The position numbers and the translations under genes were made by a program. A stretch of DNA of 49,253 nt from Candidatus Nealsonbacteria bacterium. Lineage in GTDB: Bacteria; Patescibacteriota; Minisyncoccia; Minisyncoccales; MHMH01. The notes under the pieces are model-generated. The model searched no databases and was not told where the DNA came from. It saw nothing but the letters and a program-made list of their open reading frames with translations. Every line of letters starts with the position of its first letter. Position 1 is the stretch's first letter. Of this stretch, positions 12-48,879 are shown piece by piece. The DNA lies in NCBI GenBank assembly GCA_016181985.1, contig JACOYG010000020.1, forward strand, positions 1 through 49,253, written 5' to 3'.

Positions 12-43
12 TATCCGTTCCGTGCCATGGCACGGAACGGATA
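12..43. repeat. Cistron-junction palindrome, copy A (type I): perfect 32-nt dyad TATCCGTTCCGTGCCATGGCACGGAACGGATA
   Basis: Read directly. Perfect reverse-complement symmetry centred on CCATGG. Lies 4 nt downstream of the stop of CDS 48..629. Related copies at 640..674, 26405..26439 and 43660..43691. Confidence 0.9.
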
Positions 44-629: not shown

Positions 630-639
630 ACTTTAATCC

Positions 640-674
640 TATATCCTAATTGAAGCCATGGCAAGGAACGGATA
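640..674 (-). repeat. Cistron-junction element, copy B (type II): reverse complement reads TATCCGTTCCTTGCCATGGCTTCAATTAGGATATA
   Basis: Read directly. 33/35 identical to copy C (26405..26439) in the same orientation relative to the downstream gene. Ends 10 nt upstream of the ATG of CDS 48..629. Confidence 0.85.
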
Positions 675-680
675 GTCCAA

Positions 681-712
681 CAAAAAAGGCGAGTTAAAAA
701 CCCGCCTTTTCT
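681..712 (-). terminator. Intrinsic terminator candidate downstream of CDS 718..1305
   Basis: The minus-strand RNA reads GGCGGG-UUUUUAA-CUCGCC (6-bp stem including one G-U) followed by UUUUUU. Starts 6 nt after the stop codon. Confidence 0.55.
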
Positions 713-717
713 TATTT

Positions 718-1305
718 TTAATGTTGTCCGAGTTGGCTGAAAGTGCTCAATAAAAGAGCGTTTATCTTCGGCTCAACTCGCTTATACGCTTGGCTGTCAA
801 GATACAACACATCATACCTACCACCGCCGCCAATGGTCAACACGGCCGGCACAAAAAAGATAAAAAGTGATACAATTCCCAAACTTACCACCCACCAATT
901 GAAAGTTGATCCCATTAAAAAAAGTGGTAAATACAGACCCGCCGTAGCCGCCATGAAGCAAGATATCATCATCGCTATTCTTTTCTTGTTATCTCGCGGA
1001 GCAATCCGGGAAATACGATCCTGACTAATACTAACTTCTATACCAATAGTTCGTATATCATTTTCTCCCAAATCATCCACGTCCACGATCAGTTCTTCCT
1101 GAACCCGGGAAAATCTTGTTTGGCGCTCGCCAAGCGGAATCCGCATCATAAGCCCGCGGTTTATCTCCACTTTTTTGACGGATCCCGGAGCAAGCCCGAT
1201 TTCAGAGAATCTCTCCACTTGCCAGCCTTGGCCTTCGGCGATATCTGCAATCGCCTCTATTATTTTTCTTCCACTAATTGCTTTATTTAGAACTATGGGT
1301 ATCAT
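718..1305 (-). CDS. Hypothetical protein with a ~115-aa cytoplasmic N-domain and two C-terminal TM helices
   Basis: ORF track 718..1338. Start moved to ATG 1305 (MIPIVLNK), which is preceded by GGAGG and overlaps the upstream stop as ATGA. TM segments are ISCFMAATAGLYLPLFLMG and WWVVSLGIVSLFIFFVPAVLTIG. No recognisable family. Confidence 0.6.
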   Translation of the reverse strand: MIPIVLNKAISGRKIIEAIADIAEGQGWQVERFSEIGLAPGSVKKVEINRGLMMRIPLGERQTRFSRVQEELIVDVDDLGENDIRTIGIEVSISQDRISRIAPRDNKKRIAMMISCFMAATAGLYLPLFLMGSTFNWWVVSLGIVSLFIFFVPAVLTIGGGGRYDVLYLDSQAYKRVEPKINALLLSTFSQLGQH

Positions 1306-1850
1306 TTTGCCTCCTTTCCATGTCGTGGCCAGAAACAAACATTCAAATCTTTAACTTCGAAGGCTATGGGAATACTTTTTAGTTCTTCTCTTGTAAAAAA
1401 CTTTACTTCCGCAAATTCGGTTACCGGCTTTGGCAGATCATCAACTTCCCACTCGAGTCCGAAATAAACTTTCACCAAAAGGCTTTTTCCACCAAGCTGA
1501 CAAATCGGCTTCAGGGGAACCAACTGCTCAACTCCGATATTCGGAGGAAGCTCAATATACCATTTTGCTTCTGCCAGGGCGAAACCCGCAGGAGTCAGAA
1601 GGGCTTGCTTATGACTCTCCGACATGCCCTGGATCGCATTCACCGGATCTCTAAGCGTCGCCGGAGAGCCAAATGCTAACGCAGATGATATATCCCTGCG
1701 AATAACCCCGAGTCCTGTCGGCAAACACCATTTACCGGCCTCAAATCTTACCGAATGAAGCCCCAAAAGAACTTGGGGTTCGGGCTTGCGTCGGTAAATC
1801 ACCAATCCGGCGACAATCGTTACCCAACCCGGCACTATGTATGCTTCCAC
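1302..1850 (-). CDS. Nudix-fold-like protein with a degenerate Nudix box
   Basis: 182-aa ORF. The N-terminus VAGLVIYRR..QVLLGLH...GKWCLPTG resembles the Nudix beta-strand and GG motif, but no canonical GX5EX7REUXEEXGU box is visible. ATGA-coupled to the next gene. Confidence 0.35.
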   Translation of the reverse strand: MEAYIVPGWVTIVAGLVIYRRKPEPQVLLGLHSVRFEAGKWCLPTGLGVIRRDISSALAFGSPATLRDPVNAIQGMSESHKQALLTPAGFALAEAKWYIELPPNIGVEQLVPLKPICQLGGKSLLVKVYFGLEWEVDDLPKPVTEFAEVKFFTREELKSIPIAFEVKDLNVCFWPRHGKEAK

Positions 1851-7563: not shown

Positions 7564-7564
7564 T

Positions 7565-19804: not shown

Positions 19805-19844
19805 ATTACTAGGATATTTGATCTAATCATAACTATATCACGCC

Positions 19845-25431: not shown

Positions 25432-26448
25432 ATGAAACTTAACAATCCTTTTGTTTCCATAATTATTCCCACCAGAAATGTCGGGAAATTCATCAGTAAA
25501 TGCCTGGAAAGCTTAAATAATCTTGATTATCCCAAAGACAAATACGAAGTTATTATCGCTGACAGCGAGTCAACCGACGAAACTCCCTCAATCGCCCGAA
25601 AATACGGGGCTATTTTAGTTTCCACCGCGAAAAGAAGCGTTTGCGCGGGCAGAAACGAAGGATTTAAAATAGCCAAGGGTGAAATTATCGCTTTTTCGGA
25701 TGCCGATTGTGTCATGGATAAAAATTGGATTAAAAACAGCATTAAATATTTTGAAGATTCAGTTGTCGGCGGAGTCGGCGGACCAAATCTTTCTCCAGCC
25801 GATGACACGAGTTTCGCCAAGGCGGTGAGCTTTGTTCTTGACCAGCCGTTATTTTTAGCCGGCTCGGTTTACGGCCGAGTTCTAAAAAATATCAAAGAAG
25901 TCAAAAGCCTGCCCGGCTGCAATATCATTCTCAGAAGAGAGACCCTAGATAAGGTGATGCCGATAGACGAAACGATATTGGGAGGGGAAGATTTTTTCAT
26001 GAATCAAAAGATACGCCAGCTTGGATACCGTTTGCTTTATACGCCCGATACCTTTGTGTGGCACTATCACAGGGCTGCTCCCAAGAAATTTTTTAAACAA
26101 ATTTACCGCTACGGGATAAGCCGGCTCATCATCGGCAAAAAAGACCGCCGAATGATAAATCCAATGCACATCATAGTTGGCTTTGGCGTCCCCATCTTAG
26201 CGGCAACTGCCTTTTCTTTGATTATTTTTTCCCCGGTATTGCTGGCATATATAGCTTTATCCGCCGCAGTATTTATGTTAATCTATACTGTGCTGGCCTG
26301 GTTCAAATTAAAATCGTTCCGAGCGGCCCTTTGGGTGCCGACGGTCATAGTCATTATTTTTTGTTCTTGGTCGTTGGGTTTTTTAAGAGAATTGTTTTGT
26401 CCTATATCCGTTCCTTGCCATGGCTTCAATTCGGACATAACGAAATAA
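25432..26448 (+). CDS. GT2 glycosyltransferase with C-terminal TM helices
   Basis: 338 aa. VSIIIPTRN, IIADSESTDET, FSDADCVM, and two or three C-terminal TM segments. The last 15 codons read through junction element copy C. Confidence 0.85.
   Translation: MKLNNPFVSIIIPTRNVGKFISKCLESLNNLDYPKDKYEVIIADSESTDETPSIARKYGAILVSTAKRSVCAGRNEGFKIAKGEIIAFSDADCVMDKNWIKNSIKYFEDSVVGGVGGPNLSPADDTSFAKAVSFVLDQPLFLAGSVYGRVLKNIKEVKSLPGCNIILRRETLDKVMPIDETILGGEDFFMNQKIRQLGYRLLYTPDTFVWHYHRAAPKKFFKQIYRYGISRLIIGKKDRRMINPMHIIVGFGVPILAATAFSLIIFSPVLLAYIALSAAVFMLIYTVLAWFKLKSFRAALWVPTVIVIIFCSWSLGFLRELFCPISVPCHGFNSDITK
26405..26439 (+). repeat. Cistron-junction element, copy C (type II): TATCCGTTCCTTGCCATGGCTTCAATTCGGACATA
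   Basis: Read directly. 33/35 identical to the reverse complement of copy B. Ends 12 nt before the ATG of CDS 26452..27420 and overlaps the 3' end of CDS 25432..26448. Confidence 0.85.
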
Positions 26449-26451: not shown

Positions 26452-27420
26452 ATGACGAACAAAATTTCCGTTTCTGCGATTATCCCCTGTTTTGAAAGAG
26501 CCGACGAGCTGCGGCGGCTTTTAATTTCTTTGAAAAAACAGGACTTTCCCAATCCTTGGGAAATTATCGTGGTGGATGATGGCAGTAAAAACGCCGCGGA
26601 AATAAAAACAGCCGCAGAAGAATTTCAGTGCTCCTTAATCCGTCTTGATGAAAATGTTGGACCAGCTGAAGCCAGAAATATCGGAGTAAAAAAAGCTAAT
26701 GGTGAATTTTTATGGTTCCTTGACTCAGACAGCGAAGCGGAAAACCAATTATTACTGAATAATTTAGCAAGTTGCCTCAGACAAAACAAATCATTGGCGG
26801 GAGTTGGCGGAGAAGCGGCTGAAATAAACGGGACGCTCTATTCCAACAGCCTTCACCCTCTTCCCAATTGGCTTCCTCTCGCGAAATATCTGCCGCTGAA
26901 TAAACCATTTGAACTGCGCCCTAAATTTATCTCCACTAATAATTTATTAATTTCAAAAAATGATTTTTGGAAATGCGGCGGTTTTGATCCGTATTTTGAT
27001 ATGTGCGAAGATCAGGACTTATGCCTGCGCTTAGCTAAGGGAGGAAAATTTTTCTTAGTCAGAAATGACACTTGCGCCATTCATCACCACTCTCCTGCGG
27101 GCAGAGAAGGCGGAACTTTTTGGTTTTTTAATAATGCCTGGAATTATGCTAAAAATATGCATCAAAGCAGGATGAAAATGATTTTTCGGCATTTTCCATA
27201 TCTACTGCCCGTCCTGCCCCTGCTTGACGTAATTTTTACTCCGATAGTTTTTATCGCTCAAATGTTTTTTGTTAAAAGACGAAGCAGCGACCTGCTGAAA
27301 GAAAAAATAAAAAACGGCTTCCGAGGTTTTCCCGTATTTGTTTTATTCAACTTAGCAGCCATGTTTTTAGCTTGGTTAACGGCCGGAAAAATGATACTTA
27401 AACTTATTATAAAGCCATGA
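26452..27420 (+). CDS. GT2 glycosyltransferase
   Basis: 322 aa. VSAIIPCFERADEL, IIVVDDGS, LDSDS and CEDQDLCLRL, with a C-terminal TM region. Confidence 0.85.
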   Translation: MTNKISVSAIIPCFERADELRRLLISLKKQDFPNPWEIIVVDDGSKNAAEIKTAAEEFQCSLIRLDENVGPAEARNIGVKKANGEFLWFLDSDSEAENQLLLNNLASCLRQNKSLAGVGGEAAEINGTLYSNSLHPLPNWLPLAKYLPLNKPFELRPKFISTNNLLISKNDFWKCGGFDPYFDMCEDQDLCLRLAKGGKFFLVRNDTCAIHHHSPAGREGGTFWFFNNAWNYAKNMHQSRMKMIFRHFPYLLPVLPLLDVIFTPIVFIAQMFFVKRRSSDLLKEKIKNGFRGFPVFVLFNLAAMFLAWLTAGKMILKLIIKP

Positions 27421-33686: not shown

Positions 33687-34370
33687 ATGGCGCTAGTTGT
33701 TCACTTTTTTCGAGGGCTGGCGATATTAAAAGAGGCGGGAAGCTTAAAACCGAAATCAGTATTCGTATCGGATTTGCCCCAAGAACTTGAAAATTTTGAA
33801 GATTTGTCCTGGTTATTCTTCAATAATTTTACCAATGGAGGAATCATCAGAATGTGCTTTAACGAAGCGGCTTATGCATTCAAAACGGTGCGGAAAAATC
33901 AACCCCGCTGTCTGCTGGAAATCGGCAGATATGAGGGAGGTTCAACAATGCTCATCTCTGTGGCAAAATCAAAAGAAGCCAAATTTATCAGTTTGGACAT
34001 AGAAGATAGATGCAATGAAACAATTAAAAAAACTCTCGATAAAAATACTTCCTTAATTATGGGTGATTCAAAAAAATTCATCCCTCCCTGCAAGCTTGAC
34101 TTCATCTTCATTGACGGCGATCATGGTTTTAACGGAGTAAAAGCTGATTTTGAACATTATTTTCCTTATTTAAATAACGGGGCGGATATTTTATTTCATG
34201 ATGCGGTTCGTTCGGGAAAATATATTCTTAACGAGCCGGCCGTCAATTATTTTGTCAAAACGCTTGAAGCTAATCCAAGCTTAAAATTCATAAAAGATGT
34301 TGGAAGCATCAGGCATTTCAAAAAAAATGATGACAATAAAAGGTTCTCATCCAAAAATCCTTCTGATTAA
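33687..34370 (+). CDS. Class I SAM-dependent methyltransferase (Methyltransf_24 / CmcI-TylF-like)
   Basis: LEIGRYEGGSTMLIS, FISLDIEDR, DFIFIDGDHGFNGVKADFE and ILFHD. Track start 33528 overlaps the DUF5989 gene out of frame, so I use ATG 33687. GTG 33636 is also possible. Confidence 0.75.
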   Translation: MALVVHFFRGLAILKEAGSLKPKSVFVSDLPQELENFEDLSWLFFNNFTNGGIIRMCFNEAAYAFKTVRKNQPRCLLEIGRYEGGSTMLISVAKSKEAKFISLDIEDRCNETIKKTLDKNTSLIMGDSKKFIPPCKLDFIFIDGDHGFNGVKADFEHYFPYLNNGADILFHDAVRSGKYILNEPAVNYFVKTLEANPSLKFIKDVGSIRHFKKNDDNKRFSSKNPSD

Positions 34371-35751: not shown

Positions 35752-37163
35752 TCTTACTCATTGAACCTCCTCATGTCAGCTTAGGAAATATCAGCAGATT
35801 CTACGGGGCCTTTGGCACAAGCAAGGCCGATTTTGTTTGGCCGCCGCTGGAATTAATGAGCATCGCCGGTTATTTAGATAAATTCCAAATAAAAAATGCT
35901 GTTTATGACGCCGGGGGATTGAAAAAAAATTACGGCGATATTCAGGAATTTATTGAAAAAGAAAAACCGGAGATGATTATTTTTTCCACTTCAACCACCG
36001 CTATTTATTCAGATGTGCTCACGGCCGCCAAAGCGAAAGAAATATCCAAAGATATTATTACAGTAGCCGTGGGAACTTTTGTTATGACCCTTCCTAAAGA
36101 AACCCTGGAATTAAACCGATCAATTGACGTTGTCGTTTACAGCGACGACGAGGAAATAGTCGTGAAAAATTTAATTGAATCTCGCGGTAATTTTTCTCAA
36201 GTAAGAGGAATCTGTTACCGAGCAAAAAACGGCGAAATTATAAAAAATCCGCCCCAGGAGGTAATCAAAAATTTAGATGAGCTTGGCTTCCCCGCCCATG
36301 ATAAAATCGAAAAAGAAATTTACCGCGACGCCATGAATAAAAGGTGGCCCATGACTTTAGTTATGGCCCAGCGGGGATGCGTCAACCATTGTTCGTTTTG
36401 CATCTGCCCCGCTTTATATAAATATCGGGAAAGGAGCGTTGAACATGTGCTTGAAGAATTAAAATGGATCGCAAAACTCGGCTATAAAGAATTCAAATTC
36501 GTTAATTCCGGCATTACTTATAACTTGCCATGGATCAATAAATTGACGGATGAAATGATCAAAGCCAAACTTGATCTTACGTGGATGACCAATGTGAGGG
36601 CCGACAGGCTGAACCAGGAAATACTTGACAAGATGAAAATGGCCGGCTGCCATACCTTAGCCATCGGACTTGAAACGGCCAGCCCGGAAATATTAAAAAA
36701 TGTCGGCAAAAATATTACTATCGAAAAAGCGCGGGATGCCGTGATTATGGCAAAAAAAACCGGCCTTAGAACAATCGTCTACTTTATTTTGGGACTGCCC
36801 GGAGAAACAAAAGAAACCCTGCAAAAAACCATTGATTTTGCCAAATCCGTAGGATCGGATTTCGTGACAATGGGCGTAGCCCAGCCCTTGCCCGGCACTA
36901 AATTTTATAATGACTTGAAAGAAAAGGGCCTCCTTTTAACTGACGATTGGTCAAAATACGACCCGATTAAGCCGCCGGTTTATCAATATCCCGATTTAAC
37001 TTCAAAAGAAATTTTCCTGGCCGCCAGAAAAGGCTATCGCCAATTTTATTTAAAGCCGAGCTATATCTTAAAAAGAATAAGCCAAATACGGTCTTTTAAC
37101 GAACTTGGGGATAATTTTAAGAATTTTTTAGGCTTTATTAAGCGCTACGTTCTGCCTCTATGA
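35748..37163 (+). CDS. B12-binding domain radical SAM protein (class B), paralogue 6 (divergent)
   Basis: 471 aa. MILLIEPP, QRGCVNHCSFC, IGLETASPEIL and GLPGETKET. It lacks the GEGE motif (YSDDEE instead). ATGA overlaps at both ends. Confidence 0.8.
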   Translation: MILLIEPPHVSLGNISRFYGAFGTSKADFVWPPLELMSIAGYLDKFQIKNAVYDAGGLKKNYGDIQEFIEKEKPEMIIFSTSTTAIYSDVLTAAKAKEISKDIITVAVGTFVMTLPKETLELNRSIDVVVYSDDEEIVVKNLIESRGNFSQVRGICYRAKNGEIIKNPPQEVIKNLDELGFPAHDKIEKEIYRDAMNKRWPMTLVMAQRGCVNHCSFCICPALYKYRERSVEHVLEELKWIAKLGYKEFKFVNSGITYNLPWINKLTDEMIKAKLDLTWMTNVRADRLNQEILDKMKMAGCHTLAIGLETASPEILKNVGKNITIEKARDAVIMAKKTGLRTIVYFILGLPGETKETLQKTIDFAKSVGSDFVTMGVAQPLPGTKFYNDLKEKGLLLTDDWSKYDPIKPPVYQYPDLTSKEIFLAARKGYRQFYLKPSYILKRISQIRSFNELGDNFKNFLGFIKRYVLPL

Positions 37164-38563
37164 CAAACAAAAAAATTCTTTTTGTTAATCCTCTTAGCGA
37201 ATTTAAAAATCCGATTATGCCTTTAGGGCTGGCTTCTATTGCCGCCTATCTGAAAAATAAGGAAAAAAATATCGACATTCAAGTTATAGACGCCTGGGCG
37301 GAAAACTTAAGCTTTGAAAATTTAAAAATCAGAGTTTCCAAAACTAAGGCCGATGTCATCGGCATCTATATGCTCAGCCCTCGCTACGACCAAGCAAAAA
37401 AAACCATTGAGGTTTGCAGGCAAGCCCTGCCCAACTCCCTGATCATGGCCGGAGGCCCGCACGCCTCGGCTCTGCCGGTTGAGACATTACAAGAAATTCC
37501 CCAGCTGGATATCGCCGCTGTCGGCGAAGGCGAAATCACTATGCTGGAATTGATTTCCGGCCTTCCTTATTCAAAAATTGACGGCATCGCTTATAGGGAA
37601 AACGGAGAAATAAAAACGACCAAGCCCAGAGACTTTATAAAAAACCTCGATGAACTGCCTTTTCCTAACAGGGATCTTTTCCCGTTGAAAAAATACATCT
37701 CCCCGCCCCCTTACGGCAGAAAAAATCCTTATTTCATTATGATTACCGGCCGCGGCTGCCCTTTCCATTGCGCCTATTGCTGTAAAAATGTTTTCAACGA
37801 CAATTACCGCGCCAGATCTCCTAAGAATGTCTGCGAAGAAATAGAGAACTTGATTGTAAAATACGGCGCCAAGGAAATAATGTTCACCGATGACGATTTT
37901 ACCTTAAATATGAAAAGAGCCGAGGAAATCTGCGACGAAATGATAAAAAGAGGCATAAAAATACGCTGGTCTTGCTTGACGCGGGTTGATTTGGTGACAG
38001 AGCGCCTTTTAAATAAAATGAAAAATGCCGGCTGCTGGCTGATAGCTTACGGACTGGAATCCGGCAATCAGGCAATTTTAGACACGGTTGATAAGGGCAT
38101 TAAAATAAGCCAAATAATCTCCGCCTTTGAGATAACCAGAAAAGCGGGCATCATGATTTACGCCAGCTTTGTCGTCGGCCTGCCGGGCGAAACCAAAGAA
38201 ACCATCAACGATACCTTTAATCTAGTCAAAAAAGTGAAGCCGAATTTTATCAGCGGCACGACTCTGATAGTTTATCCGGGCAGCCGTTTCGCCAAATTAA
38301 TTCAAGAGGGGCATTACAAGGGAAAAACAAGAACTCTGAAAAAAAATGAAGGCATGCCCGGTTTTTCCTATAAGGGAAACTATACCATCTTTGAGGATAA
38401 ATTGACTTACGAGGAATTGAGAGAAGCCGTAAAAATAAACGAAAGAAATTTTTATTTCAGACCGCAATATATCCTTCAAACCCTGAAGGATATTAGGTCT
38501 TTTTCTGACGCTGTCTATTTTTTTAAAGCCGGGTTCGCTGTCATGCGGTCTTTTTTAAAATAA
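37160..38563 (+). CDS. B12-binding domain radical SAM protein (class B), paralogue 7 (close copy of paralogue 5)
   Basis: 467 aa. KILFVNP, GGPHAS, GEGE, GRGCPFHCAYC and YGLESGNQAIL. Long blocks are identical to 34327..35751. Confidence 0.85.
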   Translation: MTNKKILFVNPLSEFKNPIMPLGLASIAAYLKNKEKNIDIQVIDAWAENLSFENLKIRVSKTKADVIGIYMLSPRYDQAKKTIEVCRQALPNSLIMAGGPHASALPVETLQEIPQLDIAAVGEGEITMLELISGLPYSKIDGIAYRENGEIKTTKPRDFIKNLDELPFPNRDLFPLKKYISPPPYGRKNPYFIMITGRGCPFHCAYCCKNVFNDNYRARSPKNVCEEIENLIVKYGAKEIMFTDDDFTLNMKRAEEICDEMIKRGIKIRWSCLTRVDLVTERLLNKMKNAGCWLIAYGLESGNQAILDTVDKGIKISQIISAFEITRKAGIMIYASFVVGLPGETKETINDTFNLVKKVKPNFISGTTLIVYPGSRFAKLIQEGHYKGKTRTLKKNEGMPGFSYKGNYTIFEDKLTYEELREAVKINERNFYFRPQYILQTLKDIRSFSDAVYFFKAGFAVMRSFLK

Positions 38564-39501
38564 TTAACGAAAATCAATCCAAGCAAGCCCGAAATGAAAA
38601 GGGTGCCCGTCAAAAATACTCTGGCTAAAATAACCGAGCTGGCCGCTGAAACCGTAGAGTATCCGAATAAACCAAAAAGATAAGCTACGCCTACTTCAAT
38701 TACGCCTATCCCCCCGGGGATAAAGGTCGCGAAAGTAGCGGCTCCCGTAACCATGGAAATCGAGGCGGAAATTAAAAATGGCGCAGGAAAAACTGAATTA
38801 TACATCAGATAAGACGATGATATCTCGAAAAACCAGCAAAGAACGGTGAGAGGCGTTAAAAATAAATACGCCTTTTTATTTTTTAACAACGGCAGGGCAT
38901 CGTAAAAAGCGTCCGTCTCTTTTTCCGCGAATCTTATAATTCTGAAGAATTTTAACATTCTCAAAGTTATTCTTTTTGAAATAAGGGCCGCGACCATCAA
39001 AAACAGCGCTAAAAAAATCACGGCAAGCGCTCCTCTGAAAAAACGCAGGAGCAAATCATTTTGGATGCCGGAGTTTAATATGTAAACAATGGAGGCCGTT
39101 AAAACAAGAGTAAAAATAGCCAATTCAAAAAATCTGTCCAAAACAATTACGGAAAATCCGCGGCCAACCGGTATTTTAAAATACTTATTAAATAAAACCG
39201 GGGTTATCGCCTCGCCTGATTTTAAGGGAGTGATGCTGCCCATCAGGGAATTGAACAAATAAATTGGCAGGAATTGCCTGTATTTTATTTTATTTTCAAA
39301 AATCCTGACCATTAAAAACCATTTCAGCGACCGCGTTGCGATCAATAATATGTAAACAAAAACGGCCGAAACTATGTAATATAATTTCGCTTCAGAAAAC
39401 GCTTTAACGATTTCCGACGGCCCCACCCGGTAAATCAGGAAGAAGAGAAGACCGAGGCCGATTAAAAAAATAATTAATTTGGCGATTTTTGATAAGCTCA
39501 T
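38515..39501 (-). CDS. Flippase-like membrane protein (LPG-synthase TM / UPF0104-type domain)
   Basis: Start set at ATG 39501 (MSLSKIAKLII), an ATGA overlap with the stop of 39498..40850. About 8 TM helices. The N-terminus ...LFFLIYRVGPSEIVKAFSEAKLYYIVSAVFVYILLIATRSLKW is typical of this family. The 3' end overlaps the convergent gene 37160..38563 by 49 nt. Confidence 0.65.
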   Translation of the reverse strand: MSLSKIAKLIIFLIGLGLLFFLIYRVGPSEIVKAFSEAKLYYIVSAVFVYILLIATRSLKWFLMVRIFENKIKYRQFLPIYLFNSLMGSITPLKSGEAITPVLFNKYFKIPVGRGFSVIVLDRFFELAIFTLVLTASIVYILNSGIQNDLLLRFFRGALAVIFLALFLMVAALISKRITLRMLKFFRIIRFAEKETDAFYDALPLLKNKKAYLFLTPLTVLCWFFEISSSYLMYNSVFPAPFLISASISMVTGAATFATFIPGGIGVIEVGVAYLFGLFGYSTVSAASSVILARVFLTGTLFISGLLGLIFVNYFKKDRMTANPALKK

Positions 39502-40850
39502 TTCAAATATTTTACGAATCTCAAAATGTCCATCAACTGTCCGAAATTTCTGATGCTTAAAATAGTCCTCAGCCAAAGAGACGGCCTTAAATAAAATTTT
39601 CTATAAATATATTTTTGGGCCAAAACCAATTCCCGCGAAGTAAGATATTCGGTCCGCAGGGCGGGCATCTGGCCGGCGCAGTAACCATCGTATCCGGAAA
39701 AAGAATAATCCTCAACGAGCAATCCCTTTTCTTTTATTTCGTCGTAAAGTTTTGTGCCGGGATATGGAGTCAAAATAACAAACTGGGCTCGGTGCGGGTT
39801 TATTTTTTTAGCGGCATCGAGAGTTTGTTTCACCGTTTCCATTGATTCTTCGGGCATGCCCAGCATAAAGGAAGCGGTAACTTTAATGCCGTTTTTTTGG
39901 CAAAAATCAACCGCCTCCATCGCTTTGGTTAAGGTAGTTCCTTTATTAGCTTCTTTCAGTAGTCCTTCGGAACCGCATTCTATGCCGAACATCACATTCC
40001 AACAGCCGGCTTTTTTCATCATTTTGATTGTTTCTTCATCAAGCGTATCAGCCCTGCCGTTGCAGGACCACTCAAACTTCAATCCTTTTTCAATAATCAT
40101 TTTGCAAAGACTCTTAACTCTCTCCCTGTCTGCGGTAAAAGTTTCATCAAAAAAATAAATACTCCTTATGCCTAAATTTAACAGATGCTTTATCTCTTCT
40201 AAAATTTTCGAGGCGCTTTTAAATTTCCAAATTTTACCGTATCCCCTGTCCACCGTAGCTCCTCCGATAATGCAAAAATTACAGCGATTCGGACAGCCAA
40301 CGCTGGTAATCAAGGAAGCAAACGGTTTTTTTCTCGTAAAACTCAAAGAAAAATATTTTTTAACGGGCAATAAATCGTAGGCCGGTAAGGGATGATTCTC
40401 AATTTCCGCTATTCCTGGAAATCCCAATAAACCGGGAATTTCCAAAAGCGGCTCCCTGCTTACCAAATAATCTATTTTCGGAAAATTTTGCCTCACTCGC
40501 TCGGGCATGGCCGGAGAAATGTGAGAATCCAATAAAATAGTTTTAATCTGATCATCAGCTTCTTTGGCGATTTTGGCGATTTGCGCGTCAGCGGTGAAAG
40601 TAGTCGGTGAGATTGTAAAAATAACGGCTTGGGGCTTAAATTGCCTGATTTCAGTTTCAATATCTTTGAAATTTCTGTCCAGGGCATTGGCGTCTAAAAT
40701 TTTAACTTCGGCGTATTGCCTCAAAACTCCCGCTAAATAAGCGAGCTCGATCGGCGGAAATATTGAAACGGTCGCCAAATTGGCGCAGCGCATTTCCCTC
40801 ACTACCGCGTGGCCGTTAAATCTCGGCGGATTAATAAGCAAGATACGCAT
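39498..40850 (-). CDS. B12-binding domain radical SAM protein (class B), paralogue 8
   Basis: 450 aa. MRILLINPP, SVGCPNRCNFC, FGIECGSEGLL, LGMPEESMET and TPYPGTKLY. No GEGE motif. Confidence 0.8.
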   Translation of the reverse strand: MRILLINPPRFNGHAVVREMRCANLATVSIFPPIELAYLAGVLRQYAEVKILDANALDRNFKDIETEIRQFKPQAVIFTISPTTFTADAQIAKIAKEADDQIKTILLDSHISPAMPERVRQNFPKIDYLVSREPLLEIPGLLGFPGIAEIENHPLPAYDLLPVKKYFSLSFTRKKPFASLITSVGCPNRCNFCIIGGATVDRGYGKIWKFKSASKILEEIKHLLNLGIRSIYFFDETFTADRERVKSLCKMIIEKGLKFEWSCNGRADTLDEETIKMMKKAGCWNVMFGIECGSEGLLKEANKGTTLTKAMEAVDFCQKNGIKVTASFMLGMPEESMETVKQTLDAAKKINPHRAQFVILTPYPGTKLYDEIKEKGLLVEDYSFSGYDGYCAGQMPALRTEYLTSRELVLAQKYIYRKFYLRPSLWLRTILSIRNFGQLMDILRFVKYLK

Positions 40851-40863
40851 ATTAATAAAAAAA

Positions 40864-42255
40864 TTAAATAGAAATCTTCTTAATTACGGCAAAAACTCCC
40901 CTTCTTTCGCTCCAGAGTAATTTTAAAAATTCCCAAAACCTCCTGTTTTTAAAATAAAACAAACAATATCCCATTACCTGAAGTTTCTCCATCTCTTTTC
41001 TGGACAATGTCGTAAGTTCCAAGCTGGAGCCGATGGTTTTATTGAAGTCGGCCCAATCCGAAGAAATTATCCGATAATTTCCTTCTCCCTTAAGGGCCAT
41101 TTCATATATTCTTGTGCCCGGATACGGAACCATAATACCGAAGGCAATGCTGGAAGTATTTAATTTAGCGGCGAATCTTACGGTATCTAAAGCGGTTTCT
41201 CTGGTCTCATTGGGATGTCCGATGATGAAAAAACTGCTGGTTTTAAGTCCCGCCTTTTTAGCTAAAAAAACGCTTTCCTCGGCTTTTTTCAGCGTTATGC
41301 CTTTGCCCGTTTTCTTGAGAATTTCTTCGTTGCCCGATTCCACTCCGAATCCTATTCTGGAACAACCGGCCGCTTTAAGTTTTTGAAGCAATGGCTCATC
41401 TACCAAATCCACTCTGGTGGTTACGATTAATTTTACCTTCCGATTAAGATTACTTTCAATCAACCCCGACAATAAAGCATCCGTTTGTTCTTTGTCTATG
41501 CCGAAACTTTCGTCATGAATATTGAATATATTGGCTCCGTACCGTTCTACGCCTAATTTAATCTCTTGCAAAATCATTTTGGGGCTGCGCTTCCTGATCA
41601 TACGGCCGGAAATTCTCATGCAGAAATTGCAATCAAAGGGACAGCCTCGAACGGTTAATAATGGATATTCTTCGCTCAAGGGAAACATATCCCATGCCGG
41701 AAAAGGCAGAGAATCCAAATCTGCTAAAAAATAGCGCTGCCCGTTAAAAACAATCCGGCCCGAAGGCGAGCGGAAAACCAGGCCGGCCACTTTGGAAAAA
41801 TCTCCTTTCTGAAAAATAGCATTAACCGTTTCTAAAAAAGTAATTTCTCCTTCGCCGGCGACTAACATATCAAATTCAGGGAACTGTTCTAGGGTTGCTT
41901 CGGGCAGAGCGGTAGCATGCGGACCGCCTAAAACAATTAAAACGCCCGGGAAAAATTCCTTTGCCAAGCGAGCCACCCGAGCGGCTTGCTTCACTTCGTG
42001 GGTAAAAGCGGTTATGCCTATTATGCCGGGATTATATTGCTTTAACCGCTGCTTTAATCCTTCCATGTTTATATCTTCAAATTTGGCGTCTATTGCCCGG
42101 CATTCAAAACCGCTCTGCCTTAAATAAGCGCTGATATAAGCCAGCCCTATGTGAGGATAGTCGGTATGATCGTGGGGATCGCGCCTGATAAAAGGCGGGG
42201 GATTTATCAATAAAATCTCCTCCCTTATTTTTGTTCCGTTTTCGTGGTGAGCCAT
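40864..42255 (-). CDS. B12-binding domain radical SAM protein (class B), paralogue 9
   Basis: 463 aa. ILLINPPP, GGPHAT, GEGE, VRGCPFDCNFC, FGVESGNEEIL and VPYPGTRIY. Confidence 0.85.
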   Translation of the reverse strand: MAHHENGTKIREEILLINPPPFIRRDPHDHTDYPHIGLAYISAYLRQSGFECRAIDAKFEDINMEGLKQRLKQYNPGIIGITAFTHEVKQAARVARLAKEFFPGVLIVLGGPHATALPEATLEQFPEFDMLVAGEGEITFLETVNAIFQKGDFSKVAGLVFRSPSGRIVFNGQRYFLADLDSLPFPAWDMFPLSEEYPLLTVRGCPFDCNFCMRISGRMIRKRSPKMILQEIKLGVERYGANIFNIHDESFGIDKEQTDALLSGLIESNLNRKVKLIVTTRVDLVDEPLLQKLKAAGCSRIGFGVESGNEEILKKTGKGITLKKAEESVFLAKKAGLKTSSFFIIGHPNETRETALDTVRFAAKLNTSSIAFGIMVPYPGTRIYEMALKGEGNYRIISSDWADFNKTIGSSLELTTLSRKEMEKLQVMGYCLFYFKNRRFWEFLKLLWSERRGVFAVIKKISI

Positions 42256-43649
42256 TTTTTTATGGTTTTGCGATGCTTAAAAACTGTTCTTAAAAGATTG
42301 AAGGGGTGTCTTAAAAAATAAGCGAATTTGGCTCTCTTCACATAACTATAAATTTGCTCATAGGTCAAATCCGGCTGCTCAAAAACCGGCATAAAAATAC
42401 AGGGATCCAGGGGCGGGTAAGACCTGTCCCTTTCGTAATACTTTGCCCAAGAAAAATTTTGAGGCAGGGTTCCCATTTCTTTGGCCATCGTTTCCAATTC
42501 CGTGCCGGGGTAAATTACGGATATCCCCTGGGTGGTGCCCTCAACTCCTAAATTATAATACAAATATCGGCTTAAAAAAACCGTCTTTTTAATATCCTCG
42601 TAAGTTTCTCCCGGCAGACCATGCATAAAAAAAGCCTTGAGGCCGATGCCCGCTTTTTTGATAATTTTTGCGGCCTCAATCGCCTGCTCCACGGTTATGC
42701 TTTTTTTAATATTTTTCAAAATCCTGTCGCTGCCCGATTCAACGCCAAGGTCAATAAATTCGCAGCCGGCTTTTTTCATGGCCATGATAATTTCCTCATC
42801 AACGGTATTGGCCCTCACTTCGCATTCCCAGACAAAATTAAGCTTTCTCTTTACGATTTCATCGCATATCGCCAAAACCCTTTTTTTATCCATAGTCAGA
42901 ACATCATCAAAAAATCTTATTCCCTCAATAAAGGAGTACTCTTTCAAGATGAGCTCGATTTCATCAACCACATTCTTGGGCGACCTGTGCCTGATTTGAT
43001 GCCCCCATTGTTCCGAAGTTGAGCAATAAACGCACCAATAGGGACATCCGCGGCTGGTCATCACGTTTAATGTCCTTTTATTTGATAAAGTAGTGGTCTT
43101 GTCGTATTTTTCTATGGGCAAAAGGTCCCTGGCCGGCAAGGGCAAACCGTCTAAATCATGGATCGGCAATTCCGGAGGATTATGAACAATCATTCCATCT
43201 TTATTGCGGAAAGAGATGCCTTTAACGCCTGAAAAATCTTTCCCCGCTTCAATGCTTTTAACTAAATTCAAAAAAGAAATTTCTCCTTCACCTCTCACGA
43301 TAACGTCAATTTCTGGAATATTTTCCAGGGTATCTTGGGGAGTAAGGGTCGGATGGGGGCCGCCGGCCGCAATGGGAGCTTTCGGGAATTCTTTTTTGAT
43401 TAATCTTGCCAATTCAAAGGCCGAAAATCTGATCTGCGTGCCAAAAGATATGCCGATTAAATCCGGCCCCTCTTTTTTCAGCAATTCAATAATGTTTTCA
43501 TTGGAATAATGGTTAGCCATGCTGTCAATTAAAACGATATCCTTAAAGCCGTTTTGCCTTAAAAACGCGGCCAGCCAAGCAATGCCGAGAGGCGGCATGC
43601 TTTGTTTTGTCTGGTAAATATTCGGGGGAAAAATTAAAACAATTTTCAT
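42225..43649 (-). CDS. B12-binding domain radical SAM protein (class B), paralogue 10
   Basis: Track start 43676 is the ATG at the centre of palindrome copy D. I use ATG 43649 (MKIVLIFPP), consistent with the paralogue N-termini. GGPHPT, GEGE, SRGCPYWCVYC, LGVESGSDRIL. Confidence 0.85.
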   Translation of the reverse strand: MKIVLIFPPNIYQTKQSMPPLGIAWLAAFLRQNGFKDIVLIDSMANHYSNENIIELLKKEGPDLIGISFGTQIRFSAFELARLIKKEFPKAPIAAGGPHPTLTPQDTLENIPEIDVIVRGEGEISFLNLVKSIEAGKDFSGVKGISFRNKDGMIVHNPPELPIHDLDGLPLPARDLLPIEKYDKTTTLSNKRTLNVMTSRGCPYWCVYCSTSEQWGHQIRHRSPKNVVDEIELILKEYSFIEGIRFFDDVLTMDKKRVLAICDEIVKRKLNFVWECEVRANTVDEEIIMAMKKAGCEFIDLGVESGSDRILKNIKKSITVEQAIEAAKIIKKAGIGLKAFFMHGLPGETYEDIKKTVFLSRYLYYNLGVEGTTQGISVIYPGTELETMAKEMGTLPQNFSWAKYYERDRSYPPLDPCIFMPVFEQPDLTYEQIYSYVKRAKFAYFLRHPFNLLRTVFKHRKTIKKWLTTKTEQK

Positions 43650-43659
43650 CTTGTATCTA

Positions 43660-43691
43660 TATCCGTTCCTTGCCATGGCAAGGAACGGATA
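43660..43691. repeat. Cistron-junction palindrome, copy D (type I): perfect 32-nt dyad TATCCGTTCCTTGCCATGGCAAGGAACGGATA
   Basis: Read directly. It lies between the stop at 43706 and the start at 43649 of two radical SAM genes. It differs from copy A only at one symmetric position pair (T..A versus G..C). Confidence 0.9.
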
Positions 43692-43705
43692 GTATTCTAA
43701 CTTTA

Positions 43706-45091
43706 TTATATTGAAAATATAGCCAGAGCTCCCCTGATATATCTTTTTAAATCTTCAAAGCTTCTGACTGAAATCAATTTCGGTATAATATATCCCCAAC
43801 GGAAGTAAAATTTTATGAAAGCGTATTTTTTCATCTCTTGCAATTCGTTTATACTTTTATATCCCGAAGGCAAAAATGTCGCAAAATAACCGGTGAGCTT
43901 ATCGTACGATTCATCTAAAATTTTCCCCCATTTTCCTTCTTTGATCTCTTTATAAATAACCGTGCCGGGATAGGGCGTCAAGATATTAAACTTAACATAA
44001 TCCGGGTTTAAAGCGCAAAGTATTTTGAGTGATTTTCTGACTTTTTCCGGAGTTTCTTTGGGCAAGCCCAAAATTAAGTTTGCCCTGATTTCAATTCCGG
44101 CTTCTCTCGTCCATTTAAAAGCGGCGGATATTTTTTCTAATGTTATTTTTTTATTGATAGCGTCCAATATTTCCTGATCCAAGCTTTCTATCCCAAAAAA
44201 AATGCACCAGCAGCCGGCTTTTTTCATCTTTTTCAGCAGTTCGCCGTCTACGGTATCAACCCGGCATTCGCAAGACCAGGTGATATCTATTTTTTCAGTT
44301 AAAATTTGACTGCAAAAATCATCAATCCATGCCTTATTGATCCCCCAAACGTCATCCCAAAAATTCACCTCCTTTATGCCGTAATCTTTGATCAGATGCT
44401 TGATTTCGCCGATAACATTGCCGACCGATCTCGACCTGTAGAGCCGCGTCCAAAGCGTTTCTACGTCGCAAAAAGTGCAATTAAACGGACAGCCGCGGCT
44501 CACCATCATCGTAGTCATGGGCAATCTTTTATATTGGTTAGGCGAGGGCTTGTATTTGCCGACAGGAACCAGGTGCCTGGCAGGCAAAGGCAGAGAATCA
44601 AGATTTTTTATCAATTCCCTGGCGGGATTTATTATTGCTTTTCCGTTTTGCTTAAAACCGACGCCTTTGACCATTTCCGGATTATTTATCGATCTCAATA
44701 ATTCAACGGCGCTGATTTCCCCTTCCCCTACTACCACATAATCAACCTGTCTATTGCTTAAAACCTCCATGGGTTTTGTTGTCACATGGGGGCCTCCAAA
44801 AATGACGGGGACGTCAAGATTATCCTTTATTTCTTCAGCTAATTCAAGGGCTTTGCGATAATTTGACGTGTTGCAATAAATGCCGATAATATCGGGATTC
44901 CCCGCTTCTTTTATATCCCAAGTTTGAATTTGAGTGTCGAAAATCTTAACGCGATACCCTTCTTTCTCCAAAGCCGCGCCTATGTAGAGCAAACCGAGCG
45001 GCGGCAAAGAACTGCCTATCTTCTCTATCCCCCGGCCATATCTCTCTTTCATGGAGAATGGCGGCATAATCAGTAAGATATCTTTAATCAT
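43706..45091 (-). CDS. B12-binding domain radical SAM protein (class B), paralogue 11
   Basis: 461 aa. ILLIMPP, GGPHVT, GEGE, SRGCPFNCTFC, FGIESLDQEIL and TPYPGTVIY. Confidence 0.85.
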   Translation of the reverse strand: MIKDILLIMPPFSMKERYGRGIEKIGSSLPPLGLLYIGAALEKEGYRVKIFDTQIQTWDIKEAGNPDIIGIYCNTSNYRKALELAEEIKDNLDVPVIFGGPHVTTKPMEVLSNRQVDYVVVGEGEISAVELLRSINNPEMVKGVGFKQNGKAIINPARELIKNLDSLPLPARHLVPVGKYKPSPNQYKRLPMTTMMVSRGCPFNCTFCDVETLWTRLYRSRSVGNVIGEIKHLIKDYGIKEVNFWDDVWGINKAWIDDFCSQILTEKIDITWSCECRVDTVDGELLKKMKKAGCWCIFFGIESLDQEILDAINKKITLEKISAAFKWTREAGIEIRANLILGLPKETPEKVRKSLKILCALNPDYVKFNILTPYPGTVIYKEIKEGKWGKILDESYDKLTGYFATFLPSGYKSINELQEMKKYAFIKFYFRWGYIIPKLISVRSFEDLKRYIRGALAIFSI

Positions 45092-45780: not shown

Positions 45781-47470
45781 AAATTATGAATTCCCCGATT
45801 TCGGCAGCTTTTTTTAAAAACGGGTACTGATCGAGCTGCCATTTAGGATTGGATTCTTTATCCCAAATTAAATAATTTACTTCGTATTTTTGCAGCATTT
45901 CATTGAATAAATCGGGGGTTGCCGCGGCAAAAGATTCTTGATATCTCCGGACTAAATCCAAAACGACTCCGTCCGGTATATTTTCATATTCTCCAAAAAG
46001 ATCGCGGTAATATATTCCATAGATTGCCCAGGATATGTTTTCTTTGTCCCCCAAAAAGACATCTTTTGCCTGCGCTTCAGCGACACCATCTAATCTGTAG
46101 TATAAAAAGAAGGTATTTATCAGGCGTTCGGTCGTAGCGGACAAAGAATATTTCGCCGAATGGTGATAGAAAACATTCAAGGATGTGTGAGTAACGATTA
46201 AATTGGCGATCGCGTCGTTGCTGAAAACAACCTCTTCTTTTTTGGCGTTTTTATTAAACCAATCCATTAAGGGGCCGTATTTTTGAATTTTAACGATCGT
46301 CTCTTTGCTGGCGGAATAAGAAATGCTCTGAACAAAAATACCCAGGGAAATGCTGATGACAATAAAAAAAATAGCCAGCGCCTTTTTGGCAAATTGCCAT
46401 TTTCTTAAAGAAAGAACGGAAAAAAGGATGATTAAGAGAATGATCAGGGCTAAGGGTTTGTGATAATACCAATGATAATGAGAAGGACTCAGGGCCTTGC
46501 CGGTGATTAATTGCTGATTTAAAACCACAAAAGGCGCGATAACCAAAGCCAGGGCAAAATAATACCGTTCCTTCCATTTTCTGGGAAATAAAATCAAGAA
46601 AAGAACAAGAAGCATGGGAGGCAAAATTCCCATAGATAATTCGCGGCCCCCCATCAAACCGGCCCTTGCCCCCACATCGCCAAAGGTCGGATAAGCAGCT
46701 GCCCGATAGAGATTAATAAAATAAGGAATGGCAATTAAAATTGCCCCCAAAAGAACGACGGCAATCCTTTTAATGTCCTGCCATTTTTTTTGACAAAGGA
46801 ATATCAGAATAAGAATACCGCAAAAAGCATATAAAAAAGTCCAGGTGTAAAGAAAATCGTAGAAAGACAATCCTAATATTAAAGCGCTTAAAATTCCCCA
46901 GCGCCATTGCTTCCTTTCTATAAAAAGCCAAAAAAACAATAAAAACCCGAAAAAGAAAATCCAAGTCAGGGCCGGGTTAACCGGGCGGGTGAGCAATAAA
47001 TAGTATGGCTTTAGTGTCGCCCCGCGGTTAAAAATAGAGATAGCCAAAAGAAAAACCGATGGGATAGACAGAGAGATTATTTTTTCCTTGGTAAAGAAAA
47101 ACAAGAAAGCGTAAATTATTAAAAAAAGCAGGGAAGTAAAAAACAATCGGGAAAATAAAATTGTATCATTAATGTTCAAAGAAAAAAGTTGGCCCGAATA
47201 AGCCACGATTATTGTTCCGAGCGGCTGAAAAAGATAGGGATCGCTTTTGCCGTCTTTAAAATAAGTTGAACTGAAAGCGGGGTGCCCATCCTGAACCTCT
47301 TTAACGCGCGACATCCAAGCGCTTTCGTCATCGGAAGCTCCCATTAGCCCGATTCCTTGGTAGGAATCGCCTAAATCCCAACGCGAATAAATCTGGGGAT
47401 AAGCAACGACGATGGCTGTCGCTAAAGCAAGAAAAATTGCCCACTTATGATTTTTAAAAATTTGCGCCAT
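45770..47470 (-). CDS. Polytopic membrane protein with a C-terminal soluble domain, GT-C-like candidate
   Basis: 566 aa. The first loop after TM1 has an acidic motif (GASDDESAW), there are about 11 TM helices, and a ~170-aa hydrophilic C-terminal domain. Assigned by architecture only. Confidence 0.45.
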   Translation of the reverse strand: MAQIFKNHKWAIFLALATAIVVAYPQIYSRWDLGDSYQGIGLMGASDDESAWMSRVKEVQDGHPAFSSTYFKDGKSDPYLFQPLGTIIVAYSGQLFSLNINDTILFSRLFFTSLLFLIIYAFLFFFTKEKIISLSIPSVFLLAISIFNRGATLKPYYLLLTRPVNPALTWIFFFGFLLFFWLFIERKQWRWGILSALILGLSFYDFLYTWTFLYAFCGILILIFLCQKKWQDIKRIAVVLLGAILIAIPYFINLYRAAAYPTFGDVGARAGLMGGRELSMGILPPMLLVLFLILFPRKWKERYYFALALVIAPFVVLNQQLITGKALSPSHYHWYYHKPLALIILLIILFSVLSLRKWQFAKKALAIFFIVISISLGIFVQSISYSASKETIVKIQKYGPLMDWFNKNAKKEEVVFSNDAIANLIVTHTSLNVFYHHSAKYSLSATTERLINTFFLYYRLDGVAEAQAKDVFLGDKENISWAIYGIYYRDLFGEYENIPDGVVLDLVRRYQESFAAATPDLFNEMLQKYEVNYLIWDKESNPKWQLDQYPFLKKAAEIGEFIIYER

Positions 47471-48879
47471 TAGATTTTAATCAAATCGCAAAAAGATTTC
47501 ACCGACCTTTCCACGTCATAATATGTTCTGATCTTTAAAAGATACTTTAATAAATAAGCGGGTCTAAGGTAAAAACCCTTATTAGCTTCTTTAACAAGTT
47601 TTGTTTGCTTGGCTGGCGGAAAATTTTTAAGGTTTAAATTTCCGCTGGCTTCTCTGGCGTCGGAAGAAACCGCAACTCTCTTCATATACCAAAATCTGTC
47701 CGGCAAGGCATTGTTTTCAACGGCCCATTTATAAAGTTCGGTTCCGGGATAAGCCGCTGTTGTCCCAAAAGTGGCTAAATCCAAACCAAGTTTTTGCGAA
47801 AATTTTATCGTCTCCCTGGCATCGTCTTCGGTTTCTGTCGGATTGCCAATCATAAAATAACCCATGGCTTCAATCCCTGATTTTTTACAAAGAGAGATCG
47901 CCCGCTCTACCTGTTCAAGGGTGATTCCTTTGCGCATAACATCCAAAATTCGCTGGCTGCCCGATTCTATGCCGAATGAAATCATATAACATCCGCTTTT
48001 TTTCATGGTTTTGAACAGTTCTTCGTCAACTAAGTCAACCCTGGTATTGCAAGTCCATGTTATTCGAATATTTCTTTTATCGATTTCGGAGCAAATTTCT
48101 CGAACCCAATTCTTATTTAATGTAAGATCGCTGTCTTTGAACATGAATTGTTTTATTCCGTATTTTCGATGATTATTTTCTATTTCATCAACAATATTTT
48201 CAGGAGTTCTTAATCTTAATATCTTGCCGTGAGTCAAATGAGCATCGCAAAAAATACAACCGTAAGGGCATCCTCGCGATGCCATTAAAGACGCCAAGGG
48301 AAGAGATTTGGCGAAATAACTGTCATATTTCTTGATATCTAACAATGCCAAATCAGGAAAAGGAAGATCGTCTAACTCCCGTATTAGCTGAGGCGGGCTG
48401 TTAATTATTATTTTGTTCCCATTTTTATAAATCAATCCGTTAATTTCTTCTAGGGGCTGGCCGGCAGCTAATTTATAAAAATTCTCCTCTCCTTCGCCAT
48501 AAAACAAAAAATCTATATCTTCGCTAAAATTGAATATTTCGTCTTTAGTCGAACTGATGTGCGGACCGCCAACGGCAATTTTTAAAGAGGGGCAGCGTTT
48601 TTTTAATTCGGCGGCGGCCTCTAAAACGGCTTTTGCTTGGCAAGACATTGCGCTAAACCCCACTAATGACGGATTTTCTTTTAGGATAATTTCCACAAGT
48701 TCATCTAAGGTATACCCATTAACAAAGGAATCGATGATCTTCACGGCAATCCCATTTTTTTGCAGAAAAGCTGCTATATAAAGGATGCCCAGCAAGGGAT
48801 AGGCGAAATTTTTACCCTTTCCAAAAATTATCGAAGGAGAAACCAAAACAACCGTATTTACTGGCTTTATGCCGGTCAT
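47470..48879 (-). CDS. B12-binding domain radical SAM protein (class B), paralogue 12
   Basis: 469 aa. GGPHIS, GEGE, SRGCPYGCIFC, FGIESGSQRIL and AAYPGTELY. ATGA overlap with the upstream GT2 and a TAATG overlap with the downstream gene. Confidence 0.85.
   Translation of the reverse strand: MTGIKPVNTVVLVSPSIIFGKGKNFAYPLLGILYIAAFLQKNGIAVKIIDSFVNGYTLDELVEIILKENPSLVGFSAMSCQAKAVLEAAAELKKRCPSLKIAVGGPHISSTKDEIFNFSEDIDFLFYGEGEENFYKLAAGQPLEEINGLIYKNGNKIIINSPPQLIRELDDLPFPDLALLDIKKYDSYFAKSLPLASLMASRGCPYGCIFCDAHLTHGKILRLRTPENIVDEIENNHRKYGIKQFMFKDSDLTLNKNWVREICSEIDKRNIRITWTCNTRVDLVDEELFKTMKKSGCYMISFGIESGSQRILDVMRKGITLEQVERAISLCKKSGIEAMGYFMIGNPTETEDDARETIKFSQKLGLDLATFGTTAAYPGTELYKWAVENNALPDRFWYMKRVAVSSDAREASGNLNLKNFPPAKQTKLVKEANKGFYLRPAYLLKYLLKIRTYYDVERSVKSFCDLIKI

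Follow-up and report, generated by a model that had tools for sequence, protein, structure and literature searches.

Palindromes bracketing a PaaX_M-family gene of Candidatus Nealsonbacteria are probable cognate operators of the encoded protein

REP/RAYT systems consist of one gene between palindromic repeats, of which further copies lie dispersed in intergenic regions. A second system that resembles the locus described here is that of the E. coli repressor PaaX, whose binding site is TGATTC-N27-GAATCA and which hinders RNA polymerase at its own promoter, Px, thereby repressing it (review, PMC9493321). The searchable literature returned nothing relevant on PaaX in CPR, Parcubacteria or Patescibacteria.

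The stretch of DNA analysed in this work, referred to as the window throughout, is one entire contig of 49,253 nt from a Candidatus Nealsonbacteria MAG (locus tags HYT20_). According to the domain annotation of all window genes it carries a large cluster of the surface-glycan type, which includes glycosyltransferases, sugar-nucleotide enzymes and methyltransferases. The radical SAM expansion in this cluster is unusually dense, with 12 B12-binding paralogues and 2 other radical SAM genes within 49 kb. Four copies of a palindromic element are found on the contig (copies A to D; Table 1), and the sequences and coordinates given for all four in the first-pass annotation are correct. Copies A and D are indeed perfect 32-nt palindromes, which differ solely in one symmetric pair, G/C in A and T/A in D, located 6 nt from the centre, and match at 95% over 37 nt when their asymmetric flanks are included. 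Copies B and C retain one arm, TATCCGTTCCTTG, together with the CCATGG core and differ in the second arm, which reads CTTCAATT[A/C]GGA[T/C]ATA. The distance to the downstream ATG is 10 nt for B, 12 nt for C and 10 nt for D, and 11 nt separate copy A from the contig end; A and D have no U-tract, in line with what had been noted for all four copies. The 19-nt pattern has six arm matches in the window as compared to 0.02 expected from shuffles, and the GCCATGGC octamer occurs seven times as compared to 0.3 expected from composition; the three additional ones lack arms and encode Ala-Met-Ala. Exact-pattern scans of representative genome contigs, which do not include the source species, and of viral contigs returned chance matches only, none of them extending into the palindrome. 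A Shine-Dalgarno role of the palindrome was considered and rejected, because Shine-Dalgarno sequences are absent from all gene starts in the window and the element does not lie at the corresponding distance.

Table 1. Coordinates of the palindrome copies and of the genes and signals associated with them in the window
Feature	Coordinates	Strand	Remarks
Copy A	12..43	.	Perfect 32-bp dyad, 4 nt past the stop codon of the PaaX_M gene; downstream member of the putative cognate pair
PaaX_M-family gene HYT20_00980, 193 aa	48..629	-	Pfam PaaX_M; proposed dyad binder
Promoter-like signal TTGCCA (664-659), 17-nt spacer, TAGGAT (641-636)	636..664	-	Promoter scan; consensus-based prediction
Copy B	640..674	-	Upstream dyad with non-complementary spacers; overlaps the promoter-like signal of its own gene
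Terminator-like hairpin with A and U tracts	683..711	-	-21.4 kcal/mol, z = -6.25
Radical SAM genes, examples	1934-3418, 3539-5044, 6208-7578, 28558-29955, 34297-38563, 39498-45091, 47470-48879		
Copy C	26405..26439	+	B-type satellite site, in the last 14 codons of the GT2 gene 25432..26448
Family 2 glycosyltransferase gene	26452..27420	+	Directly downstream of copy C
B12-binding radical SAM gene	42225..43649	-	Directly downstream of copy D
Copy D	43660..43691	.	Perfect palindrome, satellite site, between two B12-radical-SAM genes

The MAG contig (window 1-11) and an independent Logan contig from run SRR12113383 (L007 1533-1567) both break off at copy A or within it. Evidently, assemblies are broken by perfect palindromes this long, whose true genomic copy number may therefore be under-counted. 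Moreover, the ATG within the CCATGG core of copy D (43674-43676) shares its reading frame with the true start codon at 43649, and mechanical ORF calling (42225..43676) starts inside the palindrome and adds nine spurious codons (MARNGYRYK). Interrupted contigs and start codons misplaced by an internal ATG are thus what annotators should expect of such elements.

The gene between copies A and B encodes a protein whose sole reported Pfam domain is PaaX_M (PF20803; 66.2 bits versus a gathering score of 24). The NCBIfam equivalog model of PaaX, TIGR02277, matches it with 35.4 bits as opposed to a cut-off of 264.55 and only within residues 57-161, and profile alignment of these same residues with residues 55-156 of PaaX gives only E = 0.39. 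The best structural match in Foldseek is PaaX of E. coli (8a39, E = 1e-4), followed by many Cas2 chains and VapD, and weak matches to Cas2 are reported by PADLOC as well. The AF2 model, of poor overall quality (pLDDT 57), has the topology of three helices (residues 15-34, 38-51 and 61-68), a beta hairpin (72-85) and then a beta-alpha-beta-beta-alpha-beta unit. As the model was built on 18 sequences and has a pLDDT below 50 for residues 1-60, the winged helix and its 'recognition helix' are read from topology, and residue-level docking arguments were dropped as asking too much of an 18-sequence model. The protein is thus predicted to combine a winged helix with a Cas2-like domain. The latter carries the Cas2 signature FDI...R..L...GF...Q.S, in which Asp119 is invariant across the family, and the protein stops at residue 193 just past this domain, so that the helical PaaX_C domain, which binds phenylacetyl-CoA, is absent. 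In an alignment with OXA beta-lactamases (E = 0.005), the hydrophobic N-terminal stretch of residues 21-45 is matched to their signal/lipobox region, and it may represent either a membrane anchor or buried helices of the winged helix. PaaX_M proteins of this kind form a large family with more than 518 members among species representatives and several members per genome.

The palindromes had been described in the first-pass annotation as lying at cistron junctions. They are indeed located near gene boundaries, but the primary pattern that emerges from a comparison of related loci is a pair of sites bracketing the gene of the putative regulator, the downstream site being tied to the stop codon of this gene and not to the start of the next one. 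In orthologues of 87%, 76%, 70% and 66% identity that were compared together with their flanks, the gene is bracketed in every one of the four independent lineages by GCCATGGC-centred inverted repeats, one of which lies shortly 5' of the ATG and the other of which begins 0-10 nt past the stop codon. The outer arms vary between lineages and the symmetry is kept. The neighbourhoods of these genes are unrelated (a glycan cluster here, ftsZ and ribonucleotide reductase in the related Nealsonbacteria genome L018, murB in L020), and the downstream repeat stays with the stop codon also in loci whose next gene follows only after 138-220 nt. Over 80 loci from many Patescibacteria, 63 of 95 GCCATGGC octamers are located within 90 nt of the gene ends, that is, in about 1.4% of the sequence. 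Members of the family without a GCCATGGC centre have other dyads in the same two places (GCTATAGC, ACGATCGT, GCGATCGC, GCGGTCGC, GCGTACGC, ACCATGGT and GCATATGC). Arm identity is 83% between the two dyads that belong to one gene as opposed to 43% between loci, and in genomes with multiple paralogues a distinct dyad type is found beside each of them. In a set of 33 previously unseen proteins, dyads of at least 13 out of 20 pairs are present on 20 of the upstream and 17 of the downstream flanks, the null rate for such a dyad being 1.9% per 110 nt. By the criteria of this analysis a strong dyad is found in only about 60% of the family members.

Two observations were made in passing on these related contigs. 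A window-type site, TACCCGAATTGAAGCCATGGCAAGGAACGGATA, lies near NUDIX and HAD genes in L015 (2518-2550), where the syntenic PaaX_M gene carries different arms (AATCCCA...); this site may belong to another paralogue. In L018, a NifU-like gene (18770-20245) has weak intein-splicing and LAGLIDADG matches between its two NifU_N matches, which suggests the insertion of an intein.

What, then, would the members of this family recognise in their dyads? Across 87 distinct dyads, symmetry amounts to 0.93-0.97 at 15-16 nt from the centre and to 0.80-0.87 at 9-11 nt, and falls to 0.47-0.57 at 6-8 nt. This drop points to three contact boxes and not to a continuous stem, and the half-site consensus reads a-CGT-nn-TAA-nnn-TGCCA. 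The class of the centre (CATG, TATA or GATC) associates with residue 122 of the adjacent protein (z = 17; like all covariation statistics given here, without phylogenetic correction), which is Q in 38 of 40 members of the CATG class and E in 15 of 19 members of the TATA and GATC classes; residue 125 is likewise associated with the centre class. The signal is confined to the block of residues 121-130, which has a mean z of 4.4 as compared to 1.1 or less for all other blocks, and this argues against a purely phylogenetic origin. A tree from which residues 119-130 had been excluded shows about 17 switches of the centre and about 14 of residue 122. The outer box in turn associates with residues 56-65 in the predicted third helix, with K65 accompanying boxes ending in CC and N65 those ending in GTA in the discovery set; the window protein has K65, paired with a TATCC box. 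For replication we seeded a search with non-CATG paralogues and kept only the 33 unseen proteins. In this set a CATG centre is found with Q or H at position 122 in 10 of 12 cases and with E122 in none of 9 (p = 2e-4), and K65 again goes with xCC boxes (p = 0.002), whereas the R125-GATC and N65-GTA links, both significant in the discovery set, failed to replicate. Over about 90 loci, the unseen set included, the sequence of the dyad follows residues 122 and 65 of the gene next to it. The rule of recognition in this family would thus be partly decodable, with residue 122 corresponding to the centre and residue 65 to the outer box.

The upstream dyads have a further, asymmetric property. A TAnnnT hexamer is located +17 to +19 from the centre on 28 of 44 gene-proximal sides of upstream dyads, and on the other three flanks in 3 of 42, 10 of 40 and 7 of 32 cases. 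This hexamer lies 17 nt past the TTGCCA half-centre, which is a -35/-10 arrangement, and the ATG codons cluster at +27 to +38 from the centre of the dyad. An ATG so close to the -10-like hexamer places the predicted transcription start of the regulator gene on the ATG or a few nucleotides from it, implies leaderless mRNAs or mRNAs with a very short leader, and suggests that leaderless mRNAs are present in this lineage. At copy B, the -35 element is one half of the dyad centre and the ATG follows 6 nt beyond TAGGAT. The strong terminator-like hairpin at 683..711 closes the preceding gene, 718..1338, and ends 9 nt before copy B, which leaves the dyad as the only room for a promoter. This hairpin was overlooked by the consensus terminator scan, presumably because its U-tract pairs with its A-tract.

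We suggest that the four copies are probably cognate DNA operators of the adjacent PaaX-like protein, with copy B as a self-repressed promoter, copy A as a second site and copies C and D as satellites. A DNA operator of this protein was the last of the roles put forward in the first-pass annotation and is the one favoured by the architecture and conservation of the sites, their cognate pairing with the gene, the protein-DNA covariation and the promoter-like geometry, from which we infer binding and repression. The protein, presumably as a symmetric dimer, would recognise the dyad as double-stranded DNA. The first helix of the Cas2-like domain would apparently read the centre, GCCATGGC, with its beginning (residue 122), and the recognition helix of the predicted winged helix (residue 65) would apparently read the outer box, about 14-16 bp from the centre, with the middle A/T box located in between at about 9-11 bp. 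At copy B, where the TTGCCA half-centre would serve as the -35 element, the bound protein would block RNA polymerase and thereby repress its own gene, as does PaaX of E. coli at Px. The absence of the C-terminal ligand-binding domain of PaaX counts against this reading.

For copy A, possible roles are that of an auxiliary operator, which would allow cooperative binding or a loop of about 640 bp, and that of a roadblock. No helical phasing of the two sites that would speak for looping was detected in the family (Rayleigh p = 0.35-0.46), and a simple operator model does not call for the downstream dyad to lie so tightly against the stop codon. Terminators or antisense promoters in the downstream dyads were considered and rejected, as T-runs follow only 5 of 42 of them and -10-like boxes are found in just 3 of 42 and 7 of 32 cases. 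Copies C and D could place two points of the surface-glycan cluster under control of the same protein, by occlusion of a weak internal promoter or by acting as roadblocks. Judged by their position, the glycosyltransferase gene 26452..27420 and the radical SAM gene 42225..43649 are candidate regulated genes. Toward these genes, C and D have poor -10-like elements and the promoter scan calls no promoter in that direction; at copy D a promoter-like signal is called on the opposite strand only. The better -10-like hexamer of D, TATTCT (signal at 43670-43698 on the plus strand), faces the 3' end of the upstream gene in antisense direction, and an extra satellite of the sister species (L112 7632-7660) has a likewise antisense-facing TAACTT, which hints at antisense transcription at both sites.

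Cognate satellite sites number 10 in 834 kb as compared to 0-2 for non-cognate controls and are intergenic, close to gene boundaries; copy C itself is not purely intergenic (Table 1). In a sister population revealed by a metagenome scan, B, C and D have orthologues at the corresponding places, arranged in the same order and orientation where this can be compared. Copy B has the identical layout in the sister species, copy C is conserved (L115) and copy D is conserved to 100% (L113) between flanks that have acquired substitutions and a 6-nt indel. The position of copy A is occupied in the orthologous loci of relatives. One additional site of the sister population, in L112, overlaps the stop of a GT4 glycosyltransferase gene, and at copy C as well as at its counterpart in L115 the operator-like site is superimposed on coding sequence. 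The sister species is without the two ORFs at 718-1850 (206 and 182 aa; no Pfam, NCBIfam or PADLOC match) at this position, and homology between the two species picks up again exactly at the left edge of copy B.

Could the unit of dyad, gene and dyad be something other than a repressor with its operators? One alternative, which we consider unlikely, extends the reading of the centre by the Cas2-like domain: this domain would read and possibly also cut the dyad centre, and the unit as a whole would be a self-contained, duplicating or mobile element that has diversified into many orthogonal protein-site pairs within the Patescibacteria. If this were true, an element based on the Cas2 fold would constitute a REP/RAYT-like or homing-like system and not a plain repressor. 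Quite unlikely in our view is the related explanation that the unit is a selfish or mobile cassette and that the dyads are sites of recombination or cleavage for a nuclease- or integrase-like activity of the Cas2-like domain (Asp119). The arrangement can be likened to that of RAYT genes between REP palindromes, with satellites dispersed in the genome, the bracketing is precise to the point that the downstream dyad keeps to the stop codon irrespective of the next gene, and the unit is found in unrelated neighbourhoods. Moreover, homology between related genomes often reaches no further than 0-25 nt beyond a dyad, in L068 (~10520-10720) the downstream dyad and the final ~40 nt of a PaaX_M-family gene are tandemly duplicated, the contig ends at copy A, and the layout of 13+6+13 resembles the core sites of tyrosine recombinases. 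The Cas2-like FDI motif with its invariant Asp is retained too, and the fold matches the Cas2 and VapD nucleases. However, the module and copies B, C and D occupy orthologous positions in close relatives, most module pairs of at least 75% protein identity are syntenic on at least one side, and the satellites are sparse. Domain annotation found no transposase, integrase or recombinase in any window ORF, nor a HUH/Y1 or DDE transposase domain; phage matches were not obtained, and the single plasmid match is a weak one (28% identity) to a Streptomyces plasmid. The promoter-like asymmetry of the upstream dyad is not needed by a recombination site and PaaX, which has the two domains predicted here, is a repressor. 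With no transposase, a low copy number and orthologous positions in the sister species, the elements also do not behave as terminal repeats of an insertion sequence or MITE, the case that the first-pass annotation had named as speaking against its interpretation. That B and C are recombination hybrids was considered and rejected, since their second arm is the ancestral AATT-type arm across the family and no recombinase is present. The overall pattern fits a constrained unit of dyad, gene and dyad that is inherited vertically while the genomes around it rearrange fast, and that might occasionally be duplicated or moved.

Very unlikely is a function of the palindrome as a hairpin on the transcript, be it as a REP-like 3' stem, as an RNase III site or as a means of occluding the initiation region. 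Copies A and D do fold strongly (-26.1 and -23.5 kcal/mol, respectively, z about -7), and D ends so close to its ATG that, in a host whose genes lack Shine-Dalgarno sequences, a stem could hinder initiation. Copies B and C, however, keep the centre and the outer box but have non-complementary spacers and fold no better than shuffles (-6.2 and -5.7 kcal/mol, respectively, z of at least -0.1), and this includes the upstream copy, which is conserved in several species. The RNA roles proposed in the first-pass annotation, as a REP-like stabiliser, RNase III hairpin or translational operator, are therefore not a common property of the element. The compensatory double change between A and D is real, but a protein site with two-fold symmetry would account for it no less than pairing would. 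The position concerned is the least symmetric one in the profile of the family, where pairing is about 0.5 family-wide and a continuous stem is thus lacking. Mismatches of the G.T type outnumber those of the A.C type on the sense strand (82 versus 49), as would be expected of an RNA stem; this wobble bias was rejected as evidence for RNA, since the excess matches the strand composition (TT 91 versus AA 58, GG 17 versus CC 12). Furthermore, a -35 element in the dyad centre would leave the upstream dyad not fully transcribed, T-runs are rare after the downstream dyads, nothing within the window reaches an Rfam gathering score, and a pure RNA role leaves the covariation with two protein residues unexplained. 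Then again, transcripts of A and D would fold into highly stable hairpins, and RNA-level side effects might accompany their putative role as operators. Hardly probable at all is that the copies are operators of a different protein, either a paralogue or an unrelated regulator, and lie next to the PaaX_M gene through shared regulation: the MAG does contain at least one paralogue (P0083, HYT20_02925) and the window-type site of L015 lies in a genome whose syntenic PaaX_M gene has other arms, but the dyad tracks residues 122 and 65 of the adjacent gene over the many loci analysed and each paralogue of a multi-paralogue genome has a dyad type of its own.

If the four copies are cognate operators of the PaaX_M protein, as we believe is probable, a large family of regulators gains predicted cognate sites, together with predicted promoters that are self-regulated and leaderless or nearly so. 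The Patescibacteria (Candidate Phyla Radiation) are uncultivated and their gene regulation is essentially unknown. The sites would thus provide a first readable piece of it, and the proposed protein-site pairs are accessible in vitro without cultivation, given a single purified protein and short probes of DNA. In the window, the putative regulator would be tied to a large surface-glycan cluster and hence to a trait likely to be relevant to the attachment of episymbionts to their hosts.

How does this locus compare with systems already described? We found no description of the family and its sites in the searchable literature; the kind of system to which we assign them, a PaaX-type repressor with a long inverted-repeat operator, is already known. 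Like PaaX of E. coli, which acts at the Pa, Pz and Px promoters, the window protein is predicted to have an N-terminal winged helix followed by a Cas2-like PaaX_M domain, as judged from the Foldseek match to 8a39, and in both cases the inverted repeat is long, about 32-40 bp, with widely spaced outer half-sites. PaaX, however, has about 316 amino acids and a C-terminal domain that binds phenylacetyl-CoA, whereas the window protein has 193 and lacks that domain, scores far below the TIGR02277 cut-off and has no paa-pathway genes among the annotated genes of the window. Different from PaaX too, the putative operators also have a centre, strongly conserved and co-varying with the Cas2-like domain, the sites bracket the gene on both sides and several orthogonal paralogues are found per genome. 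With REP/RAYT the locus shares the single gene with flanking palindromes and dispersed intergenic copies. It differs in that it has no HUH/Y1 transposase, a very low copy number and sites at orthologous positions in sister species, and in that its symmetry is that of three boxes and not of a stem, with half of the window copies failing to fold. Similarly, copies A and D resemble intrinsic terminators and REP-type stabilising hairpins in being perfect, GC-containing palindromes at gene ends with a very negative folding energy, but have no U-tract, are accompanied by the unfolded copies B and C, and are separate from the genuine terminator-like hairpin at 683-711. The core sites of tyrosine recombinases (loxP, FRT, dif) have comparable 13-bp inverted arms and a 6-bp centre, and two 'hybrid' copies in the window share one arm and the core; here, however, there is no recombinase gene, the centre is symmetric and the 'hybrid' arm is the ancestral, AATT-containing one. 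Finally, the C-terminal domain shares with Cas2 the ferredoxin-like fold, the signature and the conserved Asp, but is fused to a predicted DNA-binding domain, and neither a CRISPR array nor cas1 is present in the window. To our knowledge, the sequence-specific reading of DNA is not a described property of Cas2. If the Cas2-like domain truly reads the centre of the dyad, as its covariation with this centre suggests, it would represent a hitherto unrecognised role of the Cas2 fold in DNA recognition.
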